Below, piece by piece: positions 4,210-54,478 of a stretch of 64,000 nt of DNA. The first letter of the stretch is position 1, and every line of letters begins with the position of its first letter. Below the pieces are notes generated by a model. The model was not told the origin of the DNA, did not search any database, and was given only the letters and a program-made list of their open reading frames with translations. The DNA is from Patescibacteria group bacterium. Its GTDB lineage: Bacteria; Patescibacteriota; Microgenomatia; 0-14-0-10-38-17. A program made the position numbers and the translations under genes. Location of the stretch: contig JBMNVW010000001.1 of the NCBI GenBank assembly GCA_050947035.1, positions 48,967-112,966 of the forward strand. Direction: 5' to 3'.

Positions 4210-5370
4210 TTATTCATCTTTTCCAGACTGCTTTTTGTCTTGATCAGGCTTTTTGTCTTGATCAGGCTTTTTCTTTTTAGTCTTCTTGGCTTTTTTATTT
4301 TTTTTGGTTTCTTTAGCCTCATCAGCCGTTTCATTAGCGGACTCATCAGCGGATTTTTTATCAGCCTTTTTGGTCTTTTTTTCAGGCAAGGCTGAGGAGT
4401 CGATGTCAATCTCAAAATCAGTTAATTGACTGGCCAAACGAACGTTTTGACCATCTTTGCCAATTGCCAAAGATAATTGGTCCTCAGGAGCAGAAACTTT
4501 AGCTTTTTTTTCTTCTTGATCAAGATCAATAACTAAGTCCTCGGCCGGTAAAAGAGCCGCCGCAATCAATTTCTCCGGATCGGAAGAAAACTGAATAACA
4601 TCAACCTTTTCTCCTCCCAAAGCCTTAATAACTTCGGCCACTCGAACTCCTTTTTGGCCAACACAAGCTCCCACCGGATCAACGCCCCGCCGATTAGAAT
4701 AAACCGCCAACTTTGTTCTAACACCGGCTTGACGAGCGATAGCCCGAATTTCAACCGTGTTGTTGTTAATTTCCGGTACTTCTCGACGAAAAAGAGATTT
4801 AACCAAATCCGAACTTGTCCGAGAAAGAACAATTTGCCGCCCTCTTTCTTCGCTTTGGGTAATTTCTTTAATTAAAAAGTTAAGCTTAACTCCAATCGAG
4901 TAATCTTCGCCGTGAATTTGCTCTGATAAAGGCAAAATCCCATAAGTTCGACCAATATCAACAACCACCCTCCGACCATCTTGGCGAATAACTGTTCCCA
5001 TTGTCACCGAACCCACCTTGTCTTTATAATCATCAATAATGGCCGATTTTTCTGCCTCACGCACTTTTTGTAAAATAACTTGTTTGGCTGTTTGAGTAGC
5101 AATTCGGCCAAAACCGGGCGGAGTTACTTCCAACTTTTGGTCCGGTTTTTCTTCTGGAAACCCATAAATTTTTACTCCACCAGTTTTATTATCCAGACTA
5201 ACCTGATACTCCCAGTCCTCATGAAAACTACCCTCTTCTTGGGCATCACGGACAAAGGCGGCTAAAATTGCCTCCTCAATACTCAATAAAACCACCTCTG
5301 GGTCAATACTTCTTTCCCGAGCTAGCTCAGCAACGGCAATAGAAAATTCTGTTCTTGATAATTGGGCCAT
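4210..5370 (-). CDS. nusA: Transcription termination/antitermination factor NusA with Lys-rich C-terminal tail
   Basis: 386 aa, MAQLSRTEFSIAVAELARERSIDPEVVLLSIEEAILAAF..., S1/KH architecture, nusA-infB order. C-terminus is KK/PDQDKK repeat-rich. Confidence 0.93.
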   Translation of the reverse strand: MAQLSRTEFSIAVAELARERSIDPEVVLLSIEEAILAAFVRDAQEEGSFHEDWEYQVSLDNKTGGVKIYGFPEEKPDQKLEVTPPGFGRIATQTAKQVILQKVREAEKSAIIDDYKDKVGSVTMGTVIRQDGRRVVVDIGRTYGILPLSEQIHGEDYSIGVKLNFLIKEITQSEERGRQIVLSRTSSDLVKSLFRREVPEINNNTVEIRAIARQAGVRTKLAVYSNRRGVDPVGACVGQKGVRVAEVIKALGGEKVDVIQFSSDPEKLIAAALLPAEDLVIDLDQEEKKAKVSAPEDQLSLAIGKDGQNVRLASQLTDFEIDIDSSALPEKKTKKADKKSADESANETADEAKETKKNKKAKKTKKKKPDQDKKPDQDKKQSGKDE

Positions 5371-5599
5371 AAATAATTAATAAAAAATTAAAAAAAATGG
5401 TGGGCTCTCCCCACCACCAACTTCTTCTCTTAAAAAATAACTAACGCTACTACTAATGGTAGTTTTCTTTATCGCTATTAACCGTCTAACTTTCTAAACC
5501 TTCTTGTTCGTTATTCGATTAAAAGCTATCAAAACCACCCTCTAATCTAACATAAAAAGGCTCCCTAGTCAATGAAAAATATAGACAAAATTGCTCTTT

Positions 5600-5652
5600 C
5601 TAAGGGTCCGAAGCTATCCGACCCTTAGGGTTAAACAGCTTCGGACCTTTGG
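5600..5652. repeat. REP-like palindromic element, copy A (full, one mismatch in left arm)
   Basis: CTAAGGGTCCGAAGCTATCCGACCCTTAGGGTTAAACAGCTTCGGACCTTTGG. Outer inverted repeat GGTCCGAAGCT/AGCTTCGGACC encloses an inner near-palindrome CCGACCCTTAGGGTT. It is the reverse complement of the copies at 14860 and 34201. Confidence 0.8.
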
Positions 5653-5689
5653 TTTTGATTGGCAAGGACCAGCCAAGCTTGACATCTTC

Positions 5690-5716
5690 TTAGCAATCGT
5701 GATATAGTTTTGCTAA
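5690..5716 (+). promoter_or_regulatory. CIRCE-like HrcA operator (TTAGCAATC-N9-TTTTGCTAA) overlapping a -10-like TATAGT
   Basis: TTAGCAATCGTGATATAGTTTTGCTAA lies 16 nt upstream of the hrcA ATG. Consensus CIRCE is TTAGCACTC-N9-GAGTGCTAA; the 7-bp inverted repeat TTAGCAA/TTGCTAA is conserved. Confidence 0.7.
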
Positions 5717-5732
5717 TCAAGGCGAGAAAAAT

Positions 5733-6458
5733 ATGGCCCCAACTAATCGTCAAATTGCCATCTTGAAAGCTCTAATCGAAGAATACATTGAAACAGCCGA
5801 ACCCGTTTCTTCTGATGCGGTAGAAAAAAAATATAACCTTGGAGTTTCTCCGGCTACCATTAGAAATGAAATGGCCGTTTTAACTGAGGAGGGCTTCATC
5901 AAAAAACCTCATGTTTCGGCCGGACGAGTCCCTACCCCAATGGGGCTCAAGTTTTATATTCAAAATCTTCTGGAAACCAAGCCTGTTCCCGTTACTCAAG
6001 AAGTCACGGTAAAAGAGCGGGTTTGGGATTATCGCCAAGAAGTTAATAAATTAATTGACGAAGCCCTTAGTGAGTTAGCCAGATTAACCGGTTCGATGGC
6101 TTTGGCGATATCAGAAAAGGACCAAGAGTTTAATTGGTCGGGGGTAGCTAATATTTTAGATTTCCCCGAATTTTGGGATATTGACCTAACCCACGCCCTA
6201 CTTTCTCTTTTAGATGATGTTTCTTTTTGGCAAAAATTAGCCAATCAAGTTCACGGCGAAGCTCGAGTTAGCGTTTTATTGGGGGATGATTTTGGCAACG
6301 AAATCTTAGAGCCTTGTGGTTTTGTTTTTACTAAAATTAAGCTTGGCTCCAAAGACTATATCTTGGGAATTGTCGGCCCTAGCCGCTGTCCATACCAACA
6401 AGTTATTCCTTTAGTTGATTATTTTGGCCGATTAATTAGTGAAATTGGCCAAGAGTAA
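5733..6458 (+). CDS. hrcA: Heat-inducible transcription repressor HrcA (short, 241 aa)
   Basis: MAPTNRQIAILKALIEEYIETAEPVSSDAVEKKYNLGVSPATIRNEMAVLTEEGFIKKPHVSAGRVPT is a winged-helix HrcA N-terminus; first gene of the hrcA-grpE-dnaK-dnaJ operon. Confidence 0.85.
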   Translation: MAPTNRQIAILKALIEEYIETAEPVSSDAVEKKYNLGVSPATIRNEMAVLTEEGFIKKPHVSAGRVPTPMGLKFYIQNLLETKPVPVTQEVTVKERVWDYRQEVNKLIDEALSELARLTGSMALAISEKDQEFNWSGVANILDFPEFWDIDLTHALLSLLDDVSFWQKLANQVHGEARVSVLLGDDFGNEILEPCGFVFTKIKLGSKDYILGIVGPSRCPYQQVIPLVDYFGRLISEIGQE

Positions 6459-6557
6459 GAAATAAAAATTTCCAATTCCCAAGTCCCAATTTCCAAATCC
6501 CAGACATTAAATCATTAAAAATTAACTAAAAACCTTAAATTAATAATTTTTAATATT

Positions 6558-7025
6558 ATGGTTAAGAAAAAAACCGAAAAAAGCAAGAAAAATTCAAAAA
6601 AAGATCAAGATTTTCGTCAAGAACTTAAAAAATTAGAGGAACAATTAAAAAGGGCTCTGGCTGATTATGATAATTTGGAAAAAAGAATTAATCGGGAAAA
6701 AAATAATTGGATCAATTCGGCCAATGAGGCTCTAATTGACAAGTTGCTGTTTGTTTTTGATGATTTAGAACGAGCCTGTCAAAGCATCTCTGATCCCGGT
6801 CTGTCCATGGTTCGAGATCAGTTTTGGAAAATTTTATCTAACGAGGGTGTGGAAAAAGTTGACAGTCAAGGCAAAAAATTCAACGCCCAAACCATGGACG
6901 CCCAAGAATTGGTACCCGGAGAAAAAGAAAAAGTTATTGAGGAAACTTGTCCTGGCTATTTATATCAAGGCAAATGTCTTCGTCCAGCCAAAGTCAAGGT
7001 TGGCCAAGGAAAAAATGGCTCTTGA
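6558..7025 (+). CDS. grpE: Nucleotide exchange factor GrpE
   Basis: 155 aa, coiled-coil N-terminus, LKRALADYDNLEKRINREK... GrpE signature; between hrcA and dnaK. Confidence 0.9.
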   Translation: MVKKKTEKSKKNSKKDQDFRQELKKLEEQLKRALADYDNLEKRINREKNNWINSANEALIDKLLFVFDDLERACQSISDPGLSMVRDQFWKILSNEGVEKVDSQGKKFNAQTMDAQELVPGEKEKVIEETCPGYLYQGKCLRPAKVKVGQGKNGS

Positions 7026-7068
7026 CAACTCTTTAGCAGTCATGATAACTTATTGCTAAGAATTAATT

Positions 7069-8982
7069 ATGACCGACAAAACAAGCGCAAAAATTATTGG
7101 CATTGATCTGGGTACCACCAACTCCTGTGTGGCCGTTATGGAGGGAGGCAAACCCACCGTTATCCCCACTGAAGAAGGCGGCCGACTTATTCCTTCTGTG
7201 GTTGAACCCACTAAAAGCTTGGTTGGCGAACCAGCCAAAAGGCAAATGATCATTAATCCCCAAAATACTTTCTTTTCTATTAAGCGATTGATGGGCAAGC
7301 GTTTTGATGCCGATTCCGTCAAAAAGGACAAAAAATGGCTCCCCTACAAAGTAGTTAAAGGAAAAAACGATTTGGCGGTTGTCGAAACTGAAGATGGCAA
7401 ACAGTTTACCCCCCAAGAAATTTCGGCCAAAATTTTACAAAAGGCCCGAGCAGACGCTGAGAGCTATTTGGGTGAAAAAGTAGGCCAAGCCGTTATTACT
7501 GTTCCGGCCTATTTTGATGATTCTCAACGCCAAGCCACCAAAGAGGCCGGCGAGATTGCTGGCTTAAAAGTGGCCCGAATTATCAACGAACCAACCGCTT
7601 CGGCTCTAGCTTATGGTTTAGATAAAAAAAAGGCCGAGAAAGTAGCTGTTTTTGATTTAGGCGGGGGAACCTTTGATATTTCTATTTTAGAAATCAGTGA
7701 TGGGGTCTATGAGGTCCTTTCCACTAACGGCGATACCCACCTGGGGGGAGACGACTGGAATCAAAAAATTATCGAATATGTTTTAGCTGAATTTAAAAAG
7801 GAACAGGGCATCGACCTGTCCAGCGACTCCCAGGCCAAACAAAGAATAAAAGATGCCGCCGAAAAAGCTAAAATTGAACTTTCTTCTTCCCAAAAAACCG
7901 AAATTAACCTCCCCTTTATCACTCAAGGAGAGTCTGGCCCTCTTCATCTTAACGTTTCCTTAACCAGAGCCAAACTAGAACAAATTACCAACGATCTGAT
8001 AGATCGGCTTCTGTCCCCAGTCAAAGCCGCCCTAAAAGATGCCAAGCTTAAGGTTGACGACATTGATGAGATTTTATTAGTAGGCGGTCAAACTCGAATG
8101 CCCAAAATCCGTCAAATAGTCAAAAAATTCTTTGATAAAGAGCCTAATAAATCGGTTAATCCTGACGAGGTAGTGGCTCTGGGAGCCGCCGTCCAGGGCG
8201 GGGTTTTGGCTGGTGAAGTCAAAGATGTAGTTTTACTAGATGTTACCCCACTCACCTTGGGTTTGGAAACTTTGGGCGGAGTGGCGACGCCTTTAATTGA
8301 AAGAAATACTACTATCCCAGTTAGTAAATCCCAAGTTTTTTCCACCGCCGCCGATAACCAAACCCAAGTAGAAGTTCACGTTGTTCAAGGCGAGCGGCCA
8401 ATGGCGACTGACAATAAATCTCTGGGCCGTTTTATTCTTGATGGCCTACCACCAGCTCCTCGAGGCGTACCCCAAATTGAAATTACTTTCGATATCGATT
8501 CTAACGGAATTTTAACCGTTACCGCCAAAGACAAGGCTACTGGCAAATCTCAAGATATTACTATTAAAGGTTCAACCGGCTTGTCAGAAGAAGAAATTGA
8601 AAAAATGACCCAAGAAGCTAAAGCCCATGAAGAAGAAGACCAAAATAAAAAAGCCCTAATTGAAGCCAAAAATAAAGCCGACAACTTGGTCTTCAGCGTA
8701 GAAAAAAACTTAAAAGACCTGGGTGATAAAATGGGCAAAGACGATCAAAAAACCCTAAAAAGCCAAATTGAAAAAATTAAAAAACTGTTAGAAAAAGAAT
8801 CGGTCACCAAAGAAGAGCTGGATAAAGAAACTAACCAATTAATGGAAACCTGGCAAAAATTAGGCCAAAAAATTCACCAAGCTGCTCAAAAAAATAAAGA
8901 CGACCAAGCCAAGGGATCAGCCAAATCAAAAAATAAAGAAAATGATAAGGGGGAAGCTGAAGAAGGCGAAGTAGTTAATTAA
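7069..8982 (+). CDS. dnaK: Chaperone DnaK (Hsp70)
   Basis: 637 aa, [30 protein letters not shown] Hsp70 signatures. Confidence 0.97.
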
Positions 8983-9012
8983 TTTACCTTTCCCCTACCA
9001 ATTTATTAATAG

Positions 9013-9039
9013 GGCGCCCTTTTTAGGAGCGCCTTTTTT
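9013..9039 (+). terminator. Rho-independent terminator after dnaK
   Basis: GGCGCCC...GGAGCGCC stem (7 bp with a 1-nt bulge) followed by TTTTTT. Confidence 0.5.
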
Positions 9040-9090
9040 GTTAAAATAAATTACATTGCTAGATTCTAAATACTAAATACTATTTTACTT

Positions 9091-9924
9091 ATGGCCAAAG
9101 ACTATTATCAAATTCTAGGTTTAGAAAAGGGGGCCAGCCCTGAAGAAATCAAAAAAGCTTATCGAAAATTGGCTCTTAAATGGCATCCGGACAAAAACAA
9201 GTCGGCTGAAGCGGAAAAGCGTTTTAAGGAAATTAATCAAGCCTACGAAGTCTTGTCTGACCCACAAAAAAAACAAGCCTACGACCAATATGGAAAAGCG
9301 GCTTTCTCGGGCGACTCTCCTTTTGGTCAAAACAAAGGCCAGCAAGGCCCTTTTACTTATAGTTACTCCTGGGGTGGGCAGGGTGACGATTTTTTTGCCG
9401 GTTTCTCCGATCCTTTTGATATTTTTGAATCATTTTTTGGCGGTCGGTCTCCTTTTGGTCGTCGAGAACAAGTTCCCGGATATCAAATTAATCTTCCCCT
9501 AAAAGAGGCAATTACCGGCACAGAAAAAGAAATTGAAATTAACGGGGAAAAAAGGAAAGTTAAAATTCCCCCCGGTGTTGAAACCGGCTCTCGCATTAAG
9601 TTTAAAGACTTTTACTTAATCACCCAAGTTTTACCTGATGACAATTTCTCTCGTCAGGGCACTGATTTAATTACCAAAAAAAAGATCAAATTTAAAACCG
9701 CCATCTTGGGCGATACCGTTACTATTACCAATATCGATGGTGAAAAAATTAAATTCCGGGTTCGACCGGGAACCGATTCTGGTAAGGTTATTCGGCTAAG
9801 AGGTTACGGAGCCCCAAAAAGAATTGGTTCCGGACGAGGCGATTTATATGTCCGCTTGGAAATTAAGACTCCAAAAAAATTATCAAGAAAGGAAAAAGAA
9901 ATAATTAAAAACCTAAATTTTTAA
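9091..9924 (+). CDS. dnaJ: DnaJ-family co-chaperone lacking the Cys-rich zinc-finger domain (CbpA/type II-like)
   Basis: J domain with HPD ([13 protein letters not shown]), G/F-rich region and a C-terminal substrate-binding domain; no CxxCxGxG repeats. Confidence 0.8.
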
Positions 9925-10625
9925 TCCTCGAGGCTTTGGGCTTGTTGGCCAATTAGATAGGTGATTTTGGCTTCTTCTCTTAGAGTCTGATACCAATCTT
10001 GAAATTTTTGGTTCATCTTGTCCATTCTTATCGCCTCAGTGGCTTCATCGGTTCGCTCTTTCTCACCCTCAGCCATAATTGTTTCCTCATTATCAACCAA
10101 ATATTGATCAATTTCCTCCTGAGACACTTCCACTCCTGACGATAATAGCTCTTCTAAAATCAACTGGTTCTTAATTTCTTCTCTTAGACCGGCCATCGTC
10201 ATTCCCTGAAAAGTCAAAATTTCTTCTAAGGAATTGTCTGGACCCAAGCTTTCTTTAATCTGATCAATTTCTTGATCGATAACCTCTTGATCAACAACCA
10301 CTCCTTCTTCCTTAGCCTTTTGCTCAATCAAACGCTTATCAATTATTTGATCCAACACCTGAGTGCCATATTGCTCTTCTAGAGTCTGATTATACTGCCA
10401 ACGCCAAATTGGTTGACCATTAACAACCGCCACCACCAGCCAGTGACGCTTAAAATAAAAAAAGCCCAATAAAAACAGGCCAATAACTATGGCGATAGTT
10501 GTTTTTCGAGAAAAACGAGGAAAATTTTTGCCTTTTTGAGTAGTTTTTTTCAGGCTGGTTTTAGAGGCTTTCTTGGCTTTGGAATCTTTGCTTTTAGTTT
10601 TAACCATCGCTAAATATTGTATCAT
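9921..10625 (-). CDS. Membrane-anchored SurA N-terminal-domain-like chaperone (PrsA/SurA family, no obvious PPIase domain)
   Basis: 234 aa, Lys-rich N-terminus, one TM helix, then an acidic helical domain resembling the SurA_N domain. Confidence 0.45.
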
Positions 10626-10667
10626 AAGTTTTTTTAAAACAAAATGTTATTTACATTATCCGAGGTC

Positions 10668-10704
10668 ATCCGACCCTTAGGGTTAAACAGCTTCGGACCT
10701 TTAG
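10668..10704. repeat. REP-like element, copy B (right half only)
   Basis: ATCCGACCCTTAGGGTTAAACAGCTTCGGACCTTTAG; lacks the left arm. Confidence 0.7.
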
Positions 10705-10785
10705 AATTAAGTAAAAAAAGGGCAAAAAAACAACCAACGGGGTTGCCAAGAAGCCCTCTTCTTGATAATAATATTCTATAAATAA

Positions 10786-11379
10786 ATGGCCAATCCAGAA
10801 AGAAGTAATCTCGATCGCTTAAAAACAATTTATGGTTCCCAAACTGGTGACCTTTGGGCTGAACCCACTACCCCCTTAGAAATTCAAAGAAGAGTTTTGG
10901 CCAGCCAAGACCGGCTCGAGGAACTGCCTTTTTCCTATTTGGTTGATCAATACCCTCCCTTCCAGGAAGATGTTCTGGCCAAGGGAGATGGACCAGAAAA
11001 CAAGGAAAATCTTAACCAAGAAAAAGAAAAAAGTTTTCTTCTTGGGATTAAGACAATTTTTGAAGAAATAAGCTCTTGGCCTGATTTTCCTTACCAACAA
11101 TGCGATCGAGCCTCGCGTTTCTTAGCCAAAAAAATGAAAAATATAAGCGTGGTCATGGGTTGGTTTCATCTTGATCGACCCATTGGCCTTTACTTGCCCT
11201 CTTGGGACAAGCCAATTGAACCTCATACTTGGAATGTCGACCAGAGAGGACGCATTATTGATCTAACTGTTTTTCAATTTAATCAGGGCCTTGATGATCC
11301 TTTTCCCAAACAACCCCTAATCATTGAAAAAGACATCTTTGTTGCTAATCGCTACCAAAAATCAGGCGGCCAAATTTAA
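10786..11379 (+). CDS. Hypothetical protein (197 aa)
   Basis: ORF only; no recognisable motifs. Confidence 0.3.
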   Translation: MANPERSNLDRLKTIYGSQTGDLWAEPTTPLEIQRRVLASQDRLEELPFSYLVDQYPPFQEDVLAKGDGPENKENLNQEKEKSFLLGIKTIFEEISSWPDFPYQQCDRASRFLAKKMKNISVVMGWFHLDRPIGLYLPSWDKPIEPHTWNVDQRGRIIDLTVFQFNQGLDDPFPKQPLIIEKDIFVANRYQKSGGQI

Positions 11380-11435
11380 AAAACTTCTTTTTTCCTCTTT
11401 TCAAAACACCTTCCTCTGTTATACTAAAAACCAGA

Positions 11436-13067
11436 ATGATCAATAGGGCTTTTAAAAACGGTAAAAAGTTTTTTTCTCAACAACAAACCAGCATTTTTTC
11501 CGCTGCTTTTACCATCGGCTTGGCTATGTTGGGGTCAGCAATTTTAGGAATTTTGCGCGACCGGCTTCTTTACGCTAAATTCTTTGCTACCAACCCGGCC
11601 CAATTAGACGTCTATAACGCCGCCTTTAAAATTCCTGACATTCTCTTCCAAATTTTAATCACCGGCGCTCTTTCGGCTGCTTTCATCCCTATCTTTTCCG
11701 AATGGATTAACAAAGATAAAAAAACCGCCAATCGCATTGCCTCCATTATGCTCAATTGGCTGTTGTTGGCTTTTATGGGTTTGGGAGTGCTCATTTTTAT
11801 TTTTGCCCGGCCATTGTCTGGCTTAATTACTTTTGGATTTTCGGCTGATCAGCTAGGCCTAATGGCCCTGTTGACCCAAATTTTAATTTTGGCCCAACTC
11901 TTTCTTTTGACTTCTAATTTCTTAACCGGCATTATTCACTCTCATCAACGCTTTGTTATGCCCGCCCTATCGCCGATTGTTTACAATCTCGGCATTATCG
12001 GCGGGATTATCTTTTTTTCTGATCAGGTCGGCATTCTTGGTCCTACCATTGGCGTAGTTATTGGTGCTTTTTTCCATCTCTTAATCCAGGTACCACTGGC
12101 GCTATCTTTAGGCTTTTCTTTCAAGCCATTTCTTTTTGATTTTTCTGATCCGGTTATCAAAAAAATTGTCAATCTTATGGCCCCAAGAAGTATCAGCCTA
12201 ATTATTTCTCAAGTTGAAGCGGCTATTATTATCTATTGGGCCACGGCAGTCGGGGAGGGGATGTTGTCTTTATTTTATCTAGCCCAGCACTTATCACAAT
12301 TACCGGTTCGGTTAATTGGCGCCACTATTGGCCAGGCCACCCTGCCCGCCTTGTCTCATCAAAAAGTCAAAAACGGCCTAAATTCTTTTGGTAAATTACT
12401 TCGACAAACTTTTTCTCAAACCGCCTACCTGGCTCTGCCGGTAACCGCTCTTTTATTAACCCTAAGGATTCCCTTGGTTCGCTTGGCTTTCGGAGCTCAA
12501 GAATTCCCCTGGGAAGCCACTGTTTTAACTGGGCAAATTTTGGCCATTCTTTCCGTGGCTATTTTTACCCAAACCCTTTGCGAAATTACCCGTCGGGCCT
12601 TTTATGCTTTTACCGATACCAAAACCGTTCTAATCATCGATGGTTTAGCCACCGTTTTTAATCTAATCTTCATTGCCATTGCTGTTAATTTTAGTTGGGG
12701 AATTTTGGGGTTAACCGCCGGCATTTCCTTATCCAACCTCATTCGCCTAATTTTATTCACAGCAAAACTGGAGAAAAAAATTAATCTTATCACCAAACCA
12801 GCAGTCTACTCTTGGTTAAAGATGGGGATTTCGGCCATGGTCAGTATTTTAATTTCCTGGCAGGCAATGCGGCTTTTAGATCGTTTTGTCTTTGATACTA
12901 GCCGGGTTATTCCTTTGGTTTTTTTGACCACTTTTTCTGCCCTTTTGGGAGGAAGCGCTTACTTGGCTTCTTCTTGGATCTTAAAAATTGCTGAATTTAC
13001 TCAATTTGCTAATTTGGCCCAGAAATTAATTAAAAAATCTCTCCTTCTTAAAAGTAAAAAAACCTAA
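11436..13067 (+). CDS. murJ: Lipid II flippase MurJ/MviN
   Basis: 543 aa polytopic membrane protein; the N-terminus SQQQTSIFSAAFTIGLAMLGSAILGILRDRLLYAKFFATNPAQLDVYNAAFKIPD is typical of MurJ. Confidence 0.85.
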   Translation: MINRAFKNGKKFFSQQQTSIFSAAFTIGLAMLGSAILGILRDRLLYAKFFATNPAQLDVYNAAFKIPDILFQILITGALSAAFIPIFSEWINKDKKTANRIASIMLNWLLLAFMGLGVLIFIFARPLSGLITFGFSADQLGLMALLTQILILAQLFLLTSNFLTGIIHSHQRFVMPALSPIVYNLGIIGGIIFFSDQVGILGPTIGVVIGAFFHLLIQVPLALSLGFSFKPFLFDFSDPVIKKIVNLMAPRSISLIISQVEAAIIIYWATAVGEGMLSLFYLAQHLSQLPVRLIGATIGQATLPALSHQKVKNGLNSFGKLLRQTFSQTAYLALPVTALLLTLRIPLVRLAFGAQEFPWEATVLTGQILAILSVAIFTQTLCEITRRAFYAFTDTKTVLIIDGLATVFNLIFIAIAVNFSWGILGLTAGISLSNLIRLILFTAKLEKKINLITKPAVYSWLKMGISAMVSILISWQAMRLLDRFVFDTSRVIPLVFLTTFSALLGGSAYLASSWILKIAEFTQFANLAQKLIKKSLLLKSKKT

Positions 13068-13152
13068 TTTCACTTCTTTTTTTGTGTTAAAATAAACCTT
13101 GCCTCAACAAGCCCTATTTGTTCCTAAACAAACTTTGCTTGTTTTAATAATT

Positions 13153-13225
13153 GGCCTGGTCGCCAAGTAGTAAGGCAAGGGTCTGCAAAACCCTCATTTC
13201 GTGGGTGCAATTCCCACCCAGGCCT
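13153..13225 (+). tRNA. tRNA-Cys (GCA)
   Basis: Cloverleaf with acceptor GGCCTGG/CCAGGCC, anticodon stem AGGGT/ACCCT, loop CTGCAAA (anticodon GCA), T-arm GTGGG-TGCAATT-CCCAC, and discriminator U73 (a Cys identity element). No encoded CCA. Confidence 0.8.
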
Positions 13226-13248
13226 CAAAATTTTAAAATTAGCCAATA

Positions 13249-14103
13249 ATGAAAAAATTTGTTCTGCCCTTATCAGCCCTTTTGACAGCCGCTGCTTTTG
13301 GGCTTTTTTTTCGTCATTCCTTGTTTTCTGCTCAGGGAGTTTTAGAAATAAACTCTAATCCACCGGTATCAGTTTTCATAAATGACCAAAAAATGGGAAC
13401 AACACCATTTAAAAAAGAGTTTAAACCCCAAAAACTAACAATTAAATTGGTCTCAGAAGAAGACCCAGAAAAAGCGCTTTGGCAAGGAAAAGCTCCCATT
13501 ACCTCCTCGGCCATCACTTTAATAAAATATCAGTTTGGCCAAGAAAGACAAGAAGATTATGGCGAAATTTTAACTCTAAGCAAAATTCCCGATAGAAAAA
13601 ACGGCGCCCTTTTGGTTTCCTCCTATCCTGATAAGGCTATCGTTAATCTAGACGGAGAAACTAAGGGTTACACACCACTGCTTTTAGAAGAAATTTCTCC
13701 TGGTCATCATAGCCTAGAAATTAATCTCGATGGTTATAAAAATTCTATTATTGGTCTTAATATCGCCACTGGTTTTCAACTTAACGCCGAAATAAAACTG
13801 GCCGAAATTATGGCTAGCCAAGACCAGGAAACTATCCCAGAAGAACAAGCTTTAACCCAAAAAACCCTCGTCACTATTCTTTCTACTCCTACCGGTTGGC
13901 TCAGGGTTAGAAGTGGGCCGGGAACTGGTTTTGCCGAGATTGCCAAGGTCTCTCCCGGTGAAAAATATCCTCTTTTAGCAGAAGATGAGGGTTGGCTAAA
14001 AATCTCCCTAGAAGACGAAATTGAAGAAGCCGAAGGAAAACAAACCGAGGGCTGGATATCAAGCCAATACGCAGAAACAGATGAACAAGACACCCTCCCC
14101 TAA
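13249..14103 (+). CDS. Secreted PEGA-domain protein with C-terminal SH3b-like domain
   Basis: Signal peptide, two PEGA-like beta domains (VSVFINDQKMGTTP, AIVNLDGETKGYTPLLLEEISPGHHSLEI) and a C-terminal GWLRVRSGPGTGFAEIAKVSPGEKYPLL SH3b-like segment. Confidence 0.55.
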   Translation: MKKFVLPLSALLTAAAFGLFFRHSLFSAQGVLEINSNPPVSVFINDQKMGTTPFKKEFKPQKLTIKLVSEEDPEKALWQGKAPITSSAITLIKYQFGQERQEDYGEILTLSKIPDRKNGALLVSSYPDKAIVNLDGETKGYTPLLLEEISPGHHSLEINLDGYKNSIIGLNIATGFQLNAEIKLAEIMASQDQETIPEEQALTQKTLVTILSTPTGWLRVRSGPGTGFAEIAKVSPGEKYPLLAEDEGWLKISLEDEIEEAEGKQTEGWISSQYAETDEQDTLP

Positions 14104-14117
14104 TCCAACCCCTTCCA

Positions 14118-14152
14118 ACCCGACCCTAAGGGTCGGATAGCTTCGGACCTTT
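14118..14152. repeat. REP-like element, copy C (right half), immediately 3' of the RAYT gene
   Basis: AACCCGACCCTAAGGGTCGGATAGCTTCGGACCTTTGG; inner palindrome CCGACCCTAAGGGTCGG. Confidence 0.75.
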
Positions 14153-14155
14153 GGA

Positions 14156-14818
14156 TTATTCCAAAATTAAATGCTTAATGGCCTCCAACTTCTTGCCATA
14201 ATTAACCTGATCATAAACAAAAGTCTTTAATTCTTTTATAGAAGAAAAATAATCAAGAATAGGCTTTTTGTTACAAATTCCCCTTTTCTTATCTAAATAT
14301 TCAAAAAAAGAAGAATAAGGATAGTGGTCTAACTCGGCTTCTTTTATTACCAGAGAAACTACCGGATTAATTTGAATATATCGCCAAACATGAATAAATT
14401 GGTCATCGTCTTCTACTCTCACCGCTTTAAAAACCCCTTGGAAAAGATGGCCGACTCTTTTGTATTTAATATTAAGGTAACGAGTATAGCTGTTAGAAAA
14501 ATCACTCATAAACTTGGCGATGCCATTGTCAATTAATTGCTTAAGGAGAAAATGAAAATGGTTGGGCATTAAGCAATAACCGAGAATGTCTACCCGTTTT
14601 TTGCCATCTTTTAATAATTGAGAGAAAAAACGGCTTTTTTCTTCTTCTCCCAACTTAGAAAACTGGCTTAATCCAAAAGGAAGATCGTCAAATCGATAAA
14701 AGTTCAAGGCTGACAAGGCCTTGCCATATTCTCGTTTACTGGTAAAAACCGGCCGTTTCTCGACACCAAGATTAAAAACATGGTAAATTTCTCCATTAGC
14801 AAAAATTGTTTTTCTCAT
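14156..14818 (-). CDS. REP-associated tyrosine transposase (RAYT) / IS200-like HuH Y1 transposase
   Basis: 220 aa, MPNHFHFLL (HuH motif) and WRYIQINPV (catalytic Tyr motif, compare YxxxNP of TnpA_REP); flanked on both sides by the REP-like palindromes. Confidence 0.75.
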   Translation of the reverse strand: MRKTIFANGEIYHVFNLGVEKRPVFTSKREYGKALSALNFYRFDDLPFGLSQFSKLGEEEKSRFFSQLLKDGKKRVDILGYCLMPNHFHFLLKQLIDNGIAKFMSDFSNSYTRYLNIKYKRVGHLFQGVFKAVRVEDDDQFIHVWRYIQINPVVSLVIKEAELDHYPYSSFFEYLDKKRGICNKKPILDYFSSIKELKTFVYDQVNYGKKLEAIKHLILE

Positions 14819-14859
14819 TTTAAAATCTCTCTAAAAAAAACATAAAAATTAATATTTTT

Positions 14860-14912
14860 CTAAAGGTCCGAAGCTGTTTAACCCTAAGGGTCGGATAGCT
14901 TCGGACCTTTAG
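14860..14912. repeat. REP-like element, copy D (full), immediately 5' of the RAYT gene
   Basis: CTAAAGGTCCGAAGCTGTTTAACCCTAAGGGTCGGATAGCTTCGGACCTTTAG; 16-bp perfect outer inverted repeat. Confidence 0.85.
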
Positions 14913-14988
14913 ATTAGTGCCTACTTCAATTTTTACTAATACCCCAATACCCTTCTATTGCCTCTTATTCCCTCTCTGTTGTCCTCTC

Positions 14989-16065
14989 TTACTGTTTTCT
15001 TTTGATAAAAAACAACTTAAACCAAACCGAAAAGGCCAATAAAATAACAAAAACCATTACTATGGCATAGGCTTTTTGCTGAGAATTAAGGGATAAAGCA
15101 ATTAGGCCTAAAGCCAGAGAGGAAAGCAAATAAAAAAGGGCAATTGTTCGTTTGCTAAAACCAAGGTCTAAAAATTTATGATGCAAGTGGCCCCGATCGC
15201 CCCAAACCGGAGATTTCCCCTTAGATACTCTTCTTGCGATGGTAATCAACGCATCCATCGTCGGCACTCCCAAAACCAAAATAGCGGTGGCAATTTTTGC
15301 CCCAGAAAGAATCGCCAGCACTCCTAAAAAAAACCCGGCCAAGCTTTTGCCGCTATAACCGGGCATAATTTTTTGAGGATAAAAGTTCCAAGGCAAAAAA
15401 CCAAAATATGCCCCAGAGACAGAGGCTGACAAAACAATGACCGGCCACTGAGTAATATCAGCCCCAAAACGAGCCCCCAAAATCGCCATTACTAGAGCGG
15501 CGATAAAAACAAAAGCCGGTAGCTGACCATCCACCCCCGAAGACCAACCAACAATATTCATATTCCAAACTATCCATAACAAACCAAACAAACAAGACAG
15601 GAGCCAAATGGAGTGTGGTTGACCCCAGAAATTAAAAATAATTTGCGGTTGGTCAAGACGAACCAAACCATTAAAGGGGTTAGTAATAAAAGCAATGCCA
15701 ATTCCGGCCCCAACTACGCAAAGAGCCGCTAGACAATTAAAAAAGAGTCGCAAATAAGGACTAAGATCGTATTTATCATCAAACAAGCCCACTATCAGAG
15801 TTATTAAGGCCCCAGTAAAAATCCCCCACCAGTGTTTGTCCATTGGCAACCAAAAAAAACCGGTTAAAAAAACTGCTAAAAATATAGGCAACCCCCCACC
15901 CCGAGGAACCGGATACTGATGAACCACCTTAGGATGATGGTGCTCTTGGGGATCATCAATACCAATTAAGTTTGTCCGCCAAGCCAAAAATATCGTTGCC
16001 TTGGTAAGAACAAAACTTAACAAGAAAGAGAGTAAAAAGGGGCCAAAAAATAAACCATTCACCAT
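14989..16065 (-). CDS. Polyprenyl-phosphate sugar-1-phosphate transferase (WecA/MraY/TagO family, GT4 of the GPT superfamily)
   Basis: 358 aa, about 10 TM helices, motifs DDKYDLSP and NMNIVGWSSGVDG typical of the MraY/WecA family. Confidence 0.75.
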   Translation of the reverse strand: MVNGLFFGPFLLSFLLSFVLTKATIFLAWRTNLIGIDDPQEHHHPKVVHQYPVPRGGGLPIFLAVFLTGFFWLPMDKHWWGIFTGALITLIVGLFDDKYDLSPYLRLFFNCLAALCVVGAGIGIAFITNPFNGLVRLDQPQIIFNFWGQPHSIWLLSCLFGLLWIVWNMNIVGWSSGVDGQLPAFVFIAALVMAILGARFGADITQWPVIVLSASVSGAYFGFLPWNFYPQKIMPGYSGKSLAGFFLGVLAILSGAKIATAILVLGVPTMDALITIARRVSKGKSPVWGDRGHLHHKFLDLGFSKRTIALFYLLSSLALGLIALSLNSQQKAYAIVMVFVILLAFSVWFKLFFIKRKQ

Positions 16066-32361: not shown

Positions 32362-33457
32362 TTTTTTGATAAGAAAAAATCTCTTCAGCCTTGCTTTTAT
32401 CAACGGCTGTTTTAGGACCACTTAAAAGGCTAACAATTTTTTTAGCTAAATCGGAAGAATCGCCCACCAAGAAAGTCTTGCCAAAACCGGTTTTTTCAAC
32501 CGGCTCTCTTACTCCAGGTAAATTAGCCGCCACTACCGGCCTACCAAAAAGCATCGCCTCAACTTGAACAATACCAAAAGATTCCAGAGTATCATCGCTT
32601 GGCAAAACCAAAAGGTCAATGACTTGATAAAAAGCGGCCAATTGTTTTTGGTCAAGAGGGCCTAAAAAAAGAATATTTTCGGAATATTTTTTAATTTCTG
32701 GGGCAATTTCTTGGGCAAAATCTTCGCCAATAATTTTCTTTGGACCGGCTAAAATAATCTTAAAAGAGGCCAGCTCTTTTTTTAAAATGGGAATCGCCTT
32801 TAGCAAGATCGGCAAACCCTTTTGGCGGGCAATTCTACCCGAAAAACCGATCCGATATTTTACTCCCGACAACTTTTGAGACAATTCTTTTTTATAAGCC
32901 TTGTCAGGCTGGGCAACGACTACCGGCGGATAGGTAAAAACCAACTTTTGCCTAAAGCGCGATAAAAACCGAGAATGATTAGCATAGTCTTTGGTATAAA
33001 CCACGATTTTATCAGCCAGACTGGCCGTTATAATCTGCGACAGGTTAACCACCCCTTCCGACAGACGATTAAAAAATCCCGGCCAGCCGGAAAGATCAGT
33101 ATGATGAGTCAAAATTAGCCTTTTTTTTAAAATTTTGGCCCAAAAGGCTAAAAAAATTGCCTCAAATTGAGGCAAGTGGCAATTGACTACATCGGCTTCT
33201 TTTACTAGTCGATAAGAAGAAAAGGGAAAAAGGGGCATTATTACTCCCTTGCCCAAACAAAAAGCTACCCAGTCCCGAATAATTGTTAAACCGGCTTTTT
33301 TTTCTCTCTTAGGCAAATCTGGTTGGTGCCGAGAAGTTAAAATCGTAACTTGATGGCCTCGGGCTAACAAGCCTTGGGCTAACCTTTTAGCATAAATTGT
33401 TACCCCGGAAATATTGGGCTCAAAGTAGGTTAAAGAGATTAAAATTTTCATCGTCAA
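32327..33457 (-). CDS. Glycosyltransferase family 4 (GT-B fold)
   Basis: 376 aa; C-terminal EAMLFGRPVVAANLPGVREPVE (E-x7-E) motif. Confidence 0.8.
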   Translation of the reverse strand: MTMKILISLTYFEPNISGVTIYAKRLAQGLLARGHQVTILTSRHQPDLPKREKKAGLTIIRDWVAFCLGKGVIMPLFPFSSYRLVKEADVVNCHLPQFEAIFLAFWAKILKKRLILTHHTDLSGWPGFFNRLSEGVVNLSQIITASLADKIVVYTKDYANHSRFLSRFRQKLVFTYPPVVVAQPDKAYKKELSQKLSGVKYRIGFSGRIARQKGLPILLKAIPILKKELASFKIILAGPKKIIGEDFAQEIAPEIKKYSENILFLGPLDQKQLAAFYQVIDLLVLPSDDTLESFGIVQVEAMLFGRPVVAANLPGVREPVEKTGFGKTFLVGDSSDLAKKIVSLLSGPKTAVDKSKAEEIFSYQKTIDCYDWLFDK

Positions 33458-33941
33458 CCCAATAAAACTTCGTTTGGGGAAGGTTCTCTTTCAAGAAAGA
33501 AACAATCTGCTCATCATCCTCCAAATAAATATCTAAATTAAGCTTTTTAATAATCTTTTCTTTAAAAAGATGAGGAGGCAAATTTTCTTCATTAAGGAAA
33601 ATACCACCAATGCCATTGTTTATTCCCCATCTATTAAGCCATTTTTGGGTTTCTTTTTTCAAAAAACCATAACGGCCGGAAATTAAATAAACTTCAACAT
33701 CTGGGTCCTGAGCCAGCTTTTTTAAAAAGGTCAAATTTTCTTTTATCGGCGGCCGAAAAAAATAATGATGAGATAATTTTCTTAAGTGTTGCTGAAATTT
33801 GCTAGTGGGAAAACGATAAACCAACCCCTCTTTTCCACCGCGAAAAAGCCTCTCTAAAAACTTCTTTGGTACTAAGGGAGGGCGGCCAATAATCACCCCA
33901 TCCAAATCAAAACCAATTTTTATTTTTTTTCTTTGGGCCAT
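33420..33941 (-). CDS. HAD-superfamily hydrolase/phosphatase-like protein
   Basis: 173 aa; motif I FDLDGVII near the N-terminus. Confidence 0.55.
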   Translation of the reverse strand: MAQRKKIKIGFDLDGVIIGRPPLVPKKFLERLFRGGKEGLVYRFPTSKFQQHLRKLSHHYFFRPPIKENLTFLKKLAQDPDVEVYLISGRYGFLKKETQKWLNRWGINNGIGGIFLNEENLPPHLFKEKIIKKLNLDIYLEDDEQIVSFLKENLPQTKFYWVDDENFNLFNLL

Positions 33942-34200: not shown

Positions 34201-34255
34201 TCTAAAGGTCCGAAGCTGTTTAACCCTAAGGGTCGGATAGCTTCGGACCTTTAGA
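34201..34255. repeat. REP-like element, copy E (full), 3' of the 1024-aa secreted-protein gene
   Basis: TCTAAAGGTCCGAAGCTGTTTAACCCTAAGGGTCGGATAGCTTCGGACCTTTAGA; identical to copy D. Confidence 0.85.
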
Positions 34256-34300: not shown

Positions 34301-37300
34301 TTACGGGGCCAGTTCCTGCCAAATTTGGGGACTGTAACGAAAAACTTTTGGAGCAGTAAAAAAGTATTTCGGGTCAAAACGGAAAAATTCCGCTGATAAA
34401 GTTTCATTATTCGAGCCCAAATCCCGGCCTAAAGAGAAACCATTACGAGCAAAGAAAATCCCCCGGCCAATAAAGCGACTAGAAGAAACGCTAGTGGTTA
34501 TCTGATCACCGGCAACAAAAACACCCAAGGCCGAAGCGGTACCAATGTAAACACCGGAGGTGTCACCAGTGTTACCGGTGAAGTTAATACTGCCTGAAGC
34601 AATTAAGGCAAAAAAGTCAGCCGGAGCCAATTGTTCACCATCTTCCAAACTAACCTCAACATCGCCATCAAAGAGAACAATTACTTTTCGCCCCGAAAAA
34701 TCAGCCGAATCAGTAAATAATAAGGTTCCGTCACCACCCGGCTCCTGATAAACAAAAACCTCCTTACTGGGATTACCATTAATGGCATTAACAACTGCAT
34801 CCCCCTCACCGCCTTCAACCCAAACAATCTCTTCGTTGGCCTGGTTTAGATCCAAAAGAGAAGCAAAATAATTATAAGTGTAACGATCGGCCAAACGGGA
34901 AAGATCAGCCTCAACCAACCAATCATCATTATCAGGATTAGATTTTGTCGCCGCTAGGGCGTCACCAAATTCCTTAGCGGTTCCTTGCGGGGAAGCAATA
35001 ATAGCAGAAGAACCAAAATCACCAGAATCAAGGGAAAAATATCTGGCCCAATCGGAAACACTGCTAGAAACCAAAGAAGAAACACCATTATGGCCATATA
35101 CATTGCCCGATTGGCCCTGGAACCAGCCAACCGGAGACAGAGTTTCAAAGCACCAAACTTCGGAATCGGCCGTTAGAGCGCCATTGTCGGCCCGCACCCC
35201 CCAACAATAGCGGGTATCATAACTAACGTCCAAGCCAACGCTGCTCGTGTTCTCATCAACCGTCTGGTAACTACCCAAGGCAGAAAACTCCGGTGTGCCG
35301 GAAGGAACTTCGTTAACAAAAACCTCGAAGCTGTTATTATTGCCGGCGGAATTTACCCCCCACGCTCCATCATGGGTCCAGACTAAGGAAACATCATCAA
35401 TCCGAATTTGGGCTCCATCAGGAGGCTGGGAAAGAGAGGGGGCAGTTGGCGGTGAAATCGGTTCTGGACACTCGCAAATACTAAAATTTTCAAAAGCCGA
35501 TTGCTGAAGATACCCGCCACAGCCGTGCTTAGTTCCCTTGCTCGTTAGGGTGGCCGTTATGGTACCATCCTGAGGAACAATCCTCATTGTTTTTTCCTGC
35601 CAGTCACATTCTTTATCCACTATCATATAGTCTACCGTGCTTAAACTGCCTGATTCCAACTTCATAAAGGGTCTGGTTTGAGATTCACAATCAAAACCGG
35701 GAGCGTGGGCATTAACACCATAACCATAAACAGACACTAAATACTCCCGATCAGAATCCAAATTCTGGATATCTAAAGATACACTATAGTCATCGTTATC
35801 ATCGTTTGATGTACCCAAAAAATTACTAGCATTATATCCTTCAATACCAGCGCAACCATCTGGACAACTATCACTTCCCCTCAAATAACAAGTCCAACTA
35901 GAACCAGTACTTTTCGGATCCCCATATTCTGTTCTCCAAACCCGCAGAAAACCACCCCAATCAAAGTTTGATACCCACTCATTATCAGTCCAAATACCAT
36001 AATCAATATAATCACCGCTGGTAAGATCTAATGGAACACATTCCCCTCCATAGCTACAAGTCTGCGAAGCGGTAAAATAAATTTCAGATTCCCCCCACAA
36101 AGTAGTATCGTCAGAGGCATCGGCTGATTCATCCTTGCAAACGGGGTCGCTATGACCACCATAGTAAACCCCGGCCGTATACGGCCCGGCCGGATACTGC
36201 CTCACCGGCAACTCATAGGCCCGATCATCAGGAGCCGCCTGAACATTATTAGTATTCCAAATACAGGTTCGGCATCTTCCCTCATCTCCTCCCCAACTAC
36301 AGCCATTGTCCACCGATTCATCTTTGAACCCTCCAGCCTCACAAACAACATAATCAGGTGGCAAAACTATTCCTCCCGGATTGTTTACCTTCACCTCAAT
36401 ACTGGCATAATAGCAATCATCATTGGGAGTATCAGTATTGGCCGGCTCTTGATAAACTTGAATTGTTACCGGCTCTCCCACCTCGTGTTCTGTGCCAACA
36501 ATATTGACTTTTATCCGGGCAGCTTCTTCCTGAGAAGAAGGACAGCTACAGCAAATATCCCCCTCAATAGCACAGGCCCCATAGGGAGTATCGGCCACAG
36601 TGCAACCACTAGCCGCACACTGGTCAGGATTAGTGCACCACTGAGCCCCCACAGCACAACTTCCTGTTGTCGGAGTGGGATCACCGGGGGCTGAAGTTGG
36701 AGCGGTAGTCGGAACTCCACCACAAGGACCCACTGTCCAGGTGCCATAAGCATCAACTGAACCTAAACAACCATCGCAGCTGGTCCCCCAGACTCTGGCC
36801 CCACTACTACAACCACCACCATTGGTACAGCTAGTCCGATTTCCTGTTAGTTGGGCTCCCGACTGAACGACGCCGCTAACTTGACAGCAAGTCTTATACC
36901 AACCGCCATTAGCACAGCCCGTAACACAAGAGGTACTGCACCAACCAGCCAAAATTTTACCAGTATCATTTGACCCTGAAGGGTCACCATCGCAGGCATA
37001 AGCGACATTGGAACTACCTTCACAGCGATCAGCCGCCGAGCAATCCCGATATTGCCACTCCCAAGAACACTCAAAGCCAAGATCGTCAACACGAGTAACC
37101 TTACATTGAGCATCATAGGCATAGTCCCAGGTGTCCCAACCCTCAGGACAATCGGCGTTTGGCAAACAGCAAATATCCTCCGGCTTATTCCCGGGGCAGT
37201 TAGGAGTACTACAAGAAGACCCAACATAACAATCTGATGGTGGAGAACAATAAACATAATCCTCTATTTCACAAATACCATTACCGCAATACGGCGATTG

Positions 37301-37375
37301 GGCCCAAGCAGAAAAAGCCCCAAAAAACAACCCGCCCAAAAAAATTGATAAAAACAATAAGAATTTTCTAGTCAT
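34301..37375 (-). CDS. Large secreted Cys/Gly/Ser/Thr-rich protein (1024 aa; hypothetical adhesin/toxin-like)
   Basis: Signal peptide (FGAFSAWA|QSP), then more than 60 Cys in CxxC/CC-rich modules (CGNGICE, CSTPNCPGNKPEDICC), a Pro/Thr linker and a long C-terminal beta-rich region. Codon composition is visibly more GC-rich than neighbouring genes. Confidence 0.5.
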   Translation of the reverse strand: MTRKFLLFLSIFLGGLFFGAFSAWAQSPYCGNGICEIEDYVYCSPPSDCYVGSSCSTPNCPGNKPEDICCLPNADCPEGWDTWDYAYDAQCKVTRVDDLGFECSWEWQYRDCSAADRCEGSSNVAYACDGDPSGSNDTGKILAGWCSTSCVTGCANGGWYKTCCQVSGVVQSGAQLTGNRTSCTNGGGCSSGARVWGTSCDGCLGSVDAYGTWTVGPCGGVPTTAPTSAPGDPTPTTGSCAVGAQWCTNPDQCAASGCTVADTPYGACAIEGDICCSCPSSQEEAARIKVNIVGTEHEVGEPVTIQVYQEPANTDTPNDDCYYASIEVKVNNPGGIVLPPDYVVCEAGGFKDESVDNGCSWGGDEGRCRTCIWNTNNVQAAPDDRAYELPVRQYPAGPYTAGVYYGGHSDPVCKDESADASDDTTLWGESEIYFTASQTCSYGGECVPLDLTSGDYIDYGIWTDNEWVSNFDWGGFLRVWRTEYGDPKSTGSSWTCYLRGSDSCPDGCAGIEGYNASNFLGTSNDDNDDYSVSLDIQNLDSDREYLVSVYGYGVNAHAPGFDCESQTRPFMKLESGSLSTVDYMIVDKECDWQEKTMRIVPQDGTITATLTSKGTKHGCGGYLQQSAFENFSICECPEPISPPTAPSLSQPPDGAQIRIDDVSLVWTHDGAWGVNSAGNNNSFEVFVNEVPSGTPEFSALGSYQTVDENTSSVGLDVSYDTRYCWGVRADNGALTADSEVWCFETLSPVGWFQGQSGNVYGHNGVSSLVSSSVSDWARYFSLDSGDFGSSAIIASPQGTAKEFGDALAATKSNPDNDDWLVEADLSRLADRYTYNYFASLLDLNQANEEIVWVEGGEGDAVVNAINGNPSKEVFVYQEPGGDGTLLFTDSADFSGRKVIVLFDGDVEVSLEDGEQLAPADFFALIASGSINFTGNTGDTSGVYIGTASALGVFVAGDQITTSVSSSRFIGRGIFFARNGFSLGRDLGSNNETLSAEFFRFDPKYFFTAPKVFRYSPQIWQELAP

Positions 37376-54474: not shown

Positions 54475-54478
54475 CTTT

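Follow-up and report, generated by a model that had tools for sequence, protein, structure and literature searches.

The DNA analysed here is a stretch of 64,000 nucleotides from a Patescibacteria group bacterium (assembly GCA_050947035.1, contig JBMNVW010000001.1; hereafter the window), which carries a single gene for a Y1 nuclease of the histidine-hydrophobic-histidine (HuH) type at 14156-14818 on the minus strand. The gene lies between two inverted copies of a hairpin repeat that is also dispersed elsewhere in the genome. Following the terms and criteria of Quentin 2018 (PMC6006769), Bertels 2017 and Bertels & Rainey, a gene placed between inverted hairpin repeats of a dispersed family is a REPtron, and we read the locus as a divergent version of the known system of repetitive extragenic palindromes (REPs) and REP-associated tyrosine transposases (RAYTs), that is, a REPtron with dispersed REPs in a Shapirobacteria-like genome of the candidate phyla radiation (CPR). 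We put the probability of this reading at roughly 75%. An earlier note on this DNA had proposed the same REP/RAYT architecture; the dispersed palindromes and the single, flanked, cognate Y1 gene bear it out, but the system is not a canonical one. Its RAYT score is below the curated threshold, its repeats lack a GT[AG]G foot (the short motif beside the hairpin) and can carry a foot on both sides, the residues that would contact a GTAG foot differ, the copies are few and the host belongs to the CPR. REP/RAYT systems have been characterised mostly in Proteobacteria, and here a REP-associated Y1 nuclease gene resides in an ultra-small CPR genome. The gene and the seven repeat sites of the window are as follows.

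14156-14818, minus strand: gene for a RAYT-like Y1 HuH nuclease of 220 aa, which has the HuH residues H87 and H89, a putative catalytic Tyr147 followed by NP, and a C-terminal extension of about 70 aa.
5600-5652, no strand assigned: full double-foot palindrome (foot', hairpin, foot) between two divergent genes, one NusA-like (4210-5370, minus) and the other hrcA (5733-6458, plus).
10668-10704, plus strand: single-foot unit, the hairpin followed by foot AGCTTCGGACC, separating a SurA_N-like gene (9921-10625, minus) from a divergent open reading frame (ORF) at 10786-11379 (plus).
14118-14154, plus strand: single-foot unit directly next to the stop codon of the RAYT-like gene, foot toward the gene.
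14860-14912, no strand assigned: full double-foot palindrome 41 nt upstream of the start codon of the RAYT-like gene.
34201-34255, no strand assigned: full double-foot palindrome with arms lengthened to TCTAAAGG...CCTTTAGA, between the ORF at 33420-33941 (minus) and the 3' end of the ORF at 34301-37375 (minus).
40081-40118, plus strand: degenerate single-foot unit with foot AGCTTTGGACC (nhmmer E 3.4e-8).
53572-53636, minus strand: composite of one foot and hairpin (53573-53608), then a footless second hairpin (53618-53634), between ftsH (51630-53504, minus) and tRNA-Met (53678-53748, plus).

The repeat family stands far above background in the window. Its 16-nt arm CTAAAGGTCCGAAGCT has 10 matches at three or fewer mismatches against 0.53 expected, a count equalled in 0 of 100 shuffles, and the inner motif AACCCTAAGGGTCGGAT has nine against 0.20 expected, again with no shuffle reaching the observed count; the most repeated 14-mers of the window all belong to this palindrome family. 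A profile of the 37-nt hairpin-and-foot unit, run over the window with nhmmer, found 10 units at E ≤ 3.4e-8, all inside the seven sites, which are spread across 48 kb. Weaker matches (E ≤ 0.064) fall inside the same sites, and the three matches elsewhere have E ≥ 1.6. The list of seven sites given in the earlier note is thus complete, with fewer than one unit expected by chance, and its coordinates were right to within 1-3 nt, two of them now being re-read as 14118-14154 and 40081-40118. An Rfam scan of the window returned four tRNAs only, so the repeat corresponds to no described RNA family. Two further candidates were dropped: DNA uptake sequences are far more numerous and also lie inside genes, and the copies do not have the regular spacing of a CRISPR-like array.

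In an independent read assembly (Logan SRR31066156), copies of the repeat contain three contig ends (both ends of L001 and the start of L035), with one contig beginning inside the 5600-5652 copy and one ending inside the 14860-14912 copy. Contig ends of this kind in an independent assembly indicate that the repeats are real and that assemblies break at them. It is scarcely conceivable that the family arose by chance or as an assembly artefact, or that its association with the gene is a coincidence, given the shuffled counts, the presence of the same copies in an independent genome as well as in the independent read assembly, and the recurrence of the gene association, with other sequences, in eight further lineages.

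Three of the sites (5600, 14860 and 34201) are full 53-bp palindromes and four are partial. Perfect 16-bp outer arms, which had been described for the element as a whole, are present in the 14860 and 34201 copies, while the 5600 copy has one mismatch per arm. The partial sites at 10668, 14118 and, in degenerate form, 40081 consist of the inner hairpin and one arm, and the fourth is the composite at 53572. Folded as single-stranded DNA, the full copies reach about -19 kcal/mol with a z-score of about -8 (-19.1 kcal/mol and -7.7 for 14860-14912); the partial copies, folded alone, gave no significant structure. Full and half copies had both been noted earlier and both forms are seen, but comparison with relatives suggests that the half copy is better read as the basic unit, and the 53-bp element as a double-foot form, in which a single hairpin is flanked by two feet. 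The basic unit comprises a GC-rich hairpin, GACCC-TAA-GGGTC, a linker of 4-5 nt and the 11-nt foot, usually followed by TTTAG(A). Some single-foot units keep a decayed second foot, as at 10668 in the window and in L015, a locus of a related genome. In the unit at 14118-14154 the inner hairpin is lengthened to 9 bp (ACCCGACCC TAA GGGTCGGAT). The 14118 and 40081 units also have common sequence beyond the hairpin (window 14090-14125 and 40060-40085), reading GGGTCGGGTTGGARG on the minus strand and then G-runs, which suggests a sub-family whose second foot may have been replaced by a G-rich tract.

The gene-proximal half of the 14860-14912 palindrome is a hairpin-then-foot unit inverted with respect to the one at 14118-14154. 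Read on the coding strand, the locus therefore runs hairpin, foot, 41 nt, gene, then inverted foot and hairpin at the stop codon, with the feet of both flanking units toward the gene. That the only HuH Y1 gene of the window, with its motifs HFHFLL and WRYIQINPV, sits between these two copies had been pointed out before and is confirmed.

The other sites have little in common in their surroundings. Three of the seven (5600, 10668 and 53572) lie between divergent gene starts, 14118 lies between convergent ends, and 14860, 34201 and 40081 lie between tandem genes, the neighbouring genes being unrelated to one another. Six sites are intergenic, as the earlier note had held for all of them; the degenerate 40081-40118 copy is the exception, its end supplying or overlapping the TAA stop of a polysaccharide deacetylase gene (named by Pfam) at 40115-40951 on the minus strand. 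The possibility to be weighed here is that the palindromes are host regulatory or structural sites (dimer operators, transcript hairpins, terminators or mRNA stabilisers) held in place by selection at each site and not mobilised, with the Y1 protein at most binding them, for example to regulate itself. Several copies do adjoin promoters or 3' ends, and the one at 5600-5652 lies 27 nt upstream of a strong promoter-like site of hrcA. On the other hand, the copies occur in convergent, tandem and divergent spacers beside unrelated genes, and this explanation leaves unaccounted for the recurrent linkage to a HuH nuclease with intact catalytic motifs. A role as terminators or mRNA stabilisers, which the earlier note had raised, finds no support: none of the window copies is followed by a T-run, their 5' flanks are rich in T and their 3' flanks in A, opposite to the layout of an intrinsic terminator, and 0 of the 4 copies in 5000-15500 was called in a terminator scan of that region. 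Together with the three divergent placements, this led us to reject termination as a general role. The remainder of the regulatory explanation is taken up below with the evidence from other genomes.

Turning to the protein, its score of 37.1 bits against Pfam Y1_Tnp (PF01797; cut-off 23) places it in the TnpAY1 superfamily. Its sole curated match in NCBIfam is the RAYT model NF047646 (REP_Tyr_transpos; 44 bits, E 1.9e-11), which is also the only family matched by 26 of the 26 homologues scanned (best E 6.7e-16), and none of these 26 matched an NCBIfam IS200 model. At 53-75% identity, the homologues keep the whole length of the protein, including the C-terminal extension, and H87-F-H89, Y147 and N151-P152 are invariant among them, as is the HuH-to-tyrosine distance of 58-60 residues; in TnpAY1 proteins the distance to the catalytic tyrosine is about 58-67 residues (Quentin 2018, PMC6006769). 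The family is large, with 2,681 word-indexed matches and 1,230 clusters at 50% identity (E ≤ 1e-30). It is annotated only as 'transposase', and the few named matches are from Woesebacteria, Levybacteria and Microgenomates.

Sequence searches against the PDB were marginal, a single-sequence phmmer search finding no Y1 structure and the family profile reaching only E of about 0.06-0.07, to ISDra2 TnpA and to 4ER8, the structure of E. coli TnpAREP bound to a REP hairpin. A structural comparison was thus needed, and an AlphaFold (AF2) model of the 220-aa protein (mean predicted local distance difference test score 88.8, predicted TM-score 0.86) was compared with the PDB using Foldseek. The best match of the model is 4ER8 (E 3.7e-7, TM-score 0.69 on the target, 187 aligned columns), and the TnpA structures of IS608 and ISDra2 rank below it for the same model (about 2e-4 over some 134 columns). 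This is a ranking and not proof, but it places the predicted fold nearer to TnpAREP than to IS200-type TnpA. The profile alignment to 4ER8 sets HuH on HuH and YIhlNPV on YIYINPV; Q95 is kept and W94 is replaced by F.

The association between gene and repeat is not peculiar to the window. Hairpin-and-foot units lie beside the gene in eight of eight further homologue lineages, and on both sides in seven of them, as they also do in L002, a contig 98-99% identical to the window (GCA_015657915.1, contig NPIE01000344.1; hereafter the NPIE genome). A single-foot unit abutting the stop codon, as at 14118, is found in L002, L025, L026 and L028. The lineages, with the identity of their protein to that of the window, are listed here.

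L025/26, 75%: units on both sides, same arms as the window, inner sequence GACCCCTGGAGTC.
L028, 71%: units on both sides, arms GTCTGAACCT / AGGTTCAGAC, two compensatory changes relative to the window arms GTCCGAAGCT / AGCTTCGGAC.
L029, 69%: only the downstream unit is clear.
L003, 58%: units on both sides, ACACCTG-TC-AGGTGT hairpins, arm AGGTTCAGACC, and one more full copy 7 kb away.
L005, L032, L033 and L034, 53-55%: units on both sides, CACC...GGTG hairpins, with foot TAGCTTGACAC on the upstream side and an imperfect inverse of it on the downstream side.

An alignment of 18 units from these lineages spans 39 columns, in which the stem positions A-C-C / G-T and the foot A..TT...AC are invariant. 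Across the aligned units 83% of the cells of the 9-bp hairpin are paired, falling to 28-52% when the pairing partner is slid by up to three columns. Cells changed on both sides number 25, against 11.9 ± 2.3 in shuffles, of which 0 of 500 reach 25; these figures are to be read with the caveats that the aligned units are related to one another and that a palindrome may stay symmetric for reasons besides hairpin formation. As the protein diverges, so do the units that flank its gene, and their hairpins show compensatory changes.

Two observations concern the more distant homologues. The foot TAGCTTGACAC beside the gene holds a TTGACA -35 box, with a -10-like hexamer 16-17 nt downstream of the box, in all four of the lineages that carry this foot (L005:9941-9996, L032:3583-3637, L033:7115-7170 and L034:9944-10000). 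In these homologues the repeat foot thus appears to double as the promoter of the Y1 gene, an arrangement that suggests autoregulation. L005, from a Levybacteria metagenome-assembled genome (MAG), also has a second and shorter Y1_Tnp gene (9376-9918, minus strand, 180 aa), divergent beside the 225-aa homologue, and the two Y1 genes of L005 produce long imperfect inverted repeats.

Several of these features could also be those of an autonomous insertion sequence (IS) of the IS200/IS605 type, made up of the Y1 gene and two hairpin ends, in which case the dispersed palindromes would be derivatives of its ends resembling miniature inverted-repeat transposable elements. The Pfam family is named 'Transposase IS200 like', the TnpA structures of IS608 and ISDra2 are significant fold matches, and in several distant lineages no units besides the two flanking ones are seen in the 10 kb to each side, as with a lone IS. 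We nevertheless consider an IS very unlikely. In L002, L025/L026 and L028 the gene occupies the same slot as in the window (Glycos_transf_4 (GT4), gene, PEGA/SH3, MurJ), with protein identities of 98, 75 and 71%, respectively. The divergence of the last two falls within the 55-87% range of their neighbours, in step with them, and the ratio of nonsynonymous to synonymous substitution rates (dN/dS) of 0.08-0.12 indicates purifying selection; the comparison of the window with L002 has only five differences and is uninformative for this ratio. There is one copy of the Y1 gene in the 64 kb of the window and no tnpB there. The ends of IS200/IS605 elements such as IS608 and ISDra2 read on one strand, whereas the units flanking this gene are inverted, with their feet on opposite strands. 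The protein is also longer than IS200-type TnpA (220 aa against about 130-155 aa, judged by the lengths of the structure targets), and the lack of any NCBIfam IS200 match among the 26 homologues, with 4ER8 as the closest structure, argues against a generic IS200 TnpA. The Y1 gene appears instead to be a vertically inherited chromosomal gene at a single locus, apparently domesticated.

The REP/RAYT reading further holds that the repeats have spread and turn over, and other genomes were searched for a strict pattern of foot, linker and hairpin start. At least 597 kb of the NPIE genome was covered (contigs NPIE01000344.1, NPIE01004804.1 and NPIE01006886.1; loci L012-L024). The pattern occurs at 10 sites on the three contigs, all outside genes or at a gene edge, and five of these correspond to sites of the window. 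The family thus extends beyond the ends of the gene and beyond a single insertion. Some copies are shared at orthologous sites and others are present in one strain or species and absent from another. Of the window sites, 10668, 34201 (L024) and 53572 (L018) have a copy at the same NPIE position. The 5600-5652 copy, however, is missing from the orthologous hrcA-nusA spacer of L002. The empty allele (L002:19365-19386) has CTTTAGA (TCTAAAG on the other strand), identical to the REP end, followed by a 17-nt tandem duplication (TTTTGATTGGCAAGRGA twice). No clean target or footprint is discernible when its junctions are compared with the window; a footprint, a mimic of the target and a scar of repair are all conceivable. 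A look-up by HrcA for further alleles of this site returned the same strain only.

Among species-representative genomes, the strict pattern matched only one further genome, the Candidatus Shapirobacteria MAG STE_48, from which it follows that the exact sequence type is clade-specific. STE_48 and the NPIE genome are in synteny, with nucleotide identities of 71-81%, and two pairs of copies are orthologous between STE_48 and the species of the window (L023/L009 and L022/L010). Their centres differ by genome, being CCCTAAGGG in the window's species and CCCCAGGGG in STE_48. Complete STE_48 copies are all perfect palindromes with the centre CCCC(A/T)GGGG, whereas all window and NPIE copies have CCCT(A/T)AGGG, even at orthologous sites with identical arms and flanks. 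Genome-specific centres at orthologous sites imply homogenisation or replacement, and so ongoing turnover. The NPIE site (L023) orthologous to one STE_48 copy (L009:4053-4105) has no REP, and between the NPIE genome and closer relatives there are two more orthologous pairs (L015/L019 and L021/L020).

At one of the orthologous pairs (L023:5240-5330 and L009:3366-3450) the REP arms and about 40 nt downstream are nearly identical between the species, the differences within the REP being limited to its central 17 nt. The downstream sequence includes an extended -10 element (TGCTATACT) before a nitroreductase-like gene, and the flanking coding DNA is only 71-81% identical. Co-option of this copy for a regulatory role is possible.

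These data bear in both directions on the idea that the palindromes are regulatory sites conserved one by one. Near-identity of a copy and its adjacent promoter between species is what it predicts, the -35 box in the gene-proximal foot of the distant lineages agrees with it, and symmetric covariation is likewise expected of a site bound by a dimer. Presence or absence between strains and species, and the replacement of centres genome-wide, imply turnover and not conservation per site. With the varied contexts and the unexplained link to a nuclease, we judge it unlikely as an account of the family.

The REP/RAYT reading has its own difficulties. At 44 bits the protein is below the equivalog cut-off of NF047646 (80 bits), and its profile match to 4ER8 by sequence is weak (E 0.07). 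Neither GTAG, GTGG nor their complements occur in the 53-bp element, and it is a GT[AG]G foot that defines canonical REPs (Quentin 2018). The GTAG-contact residues of E. coli TnpAREP named in that study (PMC6006769), E100, H101 and R104, are A, V and E in the 220-aa protein, although altered contact residues do fit the absence of GT[AG]G from the element. Copy number is low, with about 10-15 copies visible per genome of at least 0.6 Mb; the exact flanking 16-mer occurs 11 times in the at least 597 kb searched, compared to a mean of 41 copies for RAYT flanking 16-mers (Bertels 2017). Half of the strict-pattern sites (5 of 10) lie within the 64-kb region around the gene, a concentration that may reflect local or cis-biased spread, in a window that was picked for its richness in copies. 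No dispersed copies were found within 10 kb either side of the gene in L005, L028, L032, L033 and L034, which makes proliferation lineage-specific and leaves the flanking units, taken alone, open to other readings. The polarity of the presence and absence differences can go either way, as gain or as loss. Finally, symmetric covariation in the palindrome could also come from a dimer binding double-stranded DNA.

If the locus is a REPtron, a mechanism can be proposed by analogy with IS200/IS608 and E. coli TnpAREP. On single-stranded DNA, such as that at a replication fork, the protein would recognise the hairpin once it is extruded, read the adjoining foot, and cleave and rejoin nearby by means of Tyr147 and the HuH metal site. 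In doing so it would now and then copy, move or homogenise REP units. The gene itself would stay immobile, not being excisable because its two ends are on opposite strands.

The nearest known counterpart is the E. coli REP and bacterial interspersed mosaic element (BIME) system with TnpAREP (RayT/YafM; 4ER8), a Group 2 RAYT in Bertels 2017 and subclass 2.2 in Quentin 2018. The two share a Y1 HuH protein with a single tyrosine in Y-I-x-x-N-P-V, and a single chromosomal gene at a fixed, vertically inherited locus, flanked by inverted hairpins that are also dispersed in intergenic DNA. They differ in that the proteins are only about 14% identical, and the one described here scores below the curated RAYT hidden Markov model cut-off, does not keep E100, H101 and R104, and has 220 aa with a conserved C-terminal extension. 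The repeat has an 11-nt motif 4-5 nt from the hairpin in place of a GTAG foot, there are tens of copies and not hundreds, and the host, a CPR bacterium, has a genome of about 1 Mb. Non-IS TnpAY1 genes have been found preferentially in larger genomes (Quentin 2018, PMC6006769).

By description only, the repeats can also be likened to other TnpAY1 groups in Quentin 2018 (PMC6006769), the foot sequence being different here. The long 'double-foot' REPs of subclass 2.4 have a foot and its reverse complement at both ends, and subclass 2.6 and class 3 have atypical flanks without GT[AG]G and copies elsewhere in the genome. These groups were described in Bacteroidetes, Planctomycetes, Acidobacteria and Proteobacteria, and not in the CPR. 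With the REPIN-RAYT systems of Pseudomonas (Group 3; Bertels & Rainey), where the REPIN is a palindromic unit of two inverted REP halves, the family shares that symmetry and a single-copy cognate RAYT, as well as persistence at orthologous sites across species, sequence types particular to each genome and single-foot remnants. REPINs are about 100 bp long with two complete REP hairpins and a spacer, whereas here two feet share one hairpin within 53 bp, and the population is smaller by one to two orders of magnitude. A link to REPINs has been stated for RAYTs of Groups 2 and 3 only (Bertels & Rainey). The TnpA proteins of IS200/IS605 elements (IS608 and ISDra2) share the HuH/tyrosine core and fold, and their recognition of a hairpin with an adjacent short sequence is the mechanistic paradigm, but the gene described here is not mobile, its ends are inverted, its protein is longer, it has no TnpB and it matches no IS200 model of NCBIfam.

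Among the papers searched, none links RAYT or REP with CPR taxa. What is described here is no new type of system; it is of the known REP/RAYT kind with a different recognition code. If this is true, the host range and recognition repertoire of REP/RAYT widen to a non-GTAG foot, a compact and alignable hairpin-and-foot code, varying together with the protein, becomes open to tests with oligonucleotides, and one repeated source of contig breaks in metagenome assemblies of the CPR is explained.

Taking these strands together, we tentatively suggest a wider picture that is possible but still doubtful as a whole. The gene may belong to an old, vertically inherited REPtron family found throughout the Microgenomates (more than 1,200 clusters at 50% identity), which would use a hairpin and 11-nt foot code in place of GTAG and regulate itself through a gene-proximal foot that serves as its own -35 box. 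Proliferation would be sporadic and preferentially near the gene, by cis or local hopping, as in this Shapirobacteria clade, with some copies co-opted beside promoters. Genomes of about 1 Mb would then be the smallest known hosts of a REPIN-like 'intragenomic population'.

One further repeat in the window was noted close to the composite copy at 53572-53636. A perfect 54-nt direct repeat occurs at 53728-53781 and 53934-53987, 206 nt apart, and is made up of the last 21 nt of tRNA-Met (53678-53748) and the 33 nt downstream. Next come a 23S_rRNA_IVP-family gene (54015-54383) and a second tRNA-Met (54401-54475), and from its position and sequence the direct repeat looks like a duplication of a tRNA 3' end left by an integration or recombination event.

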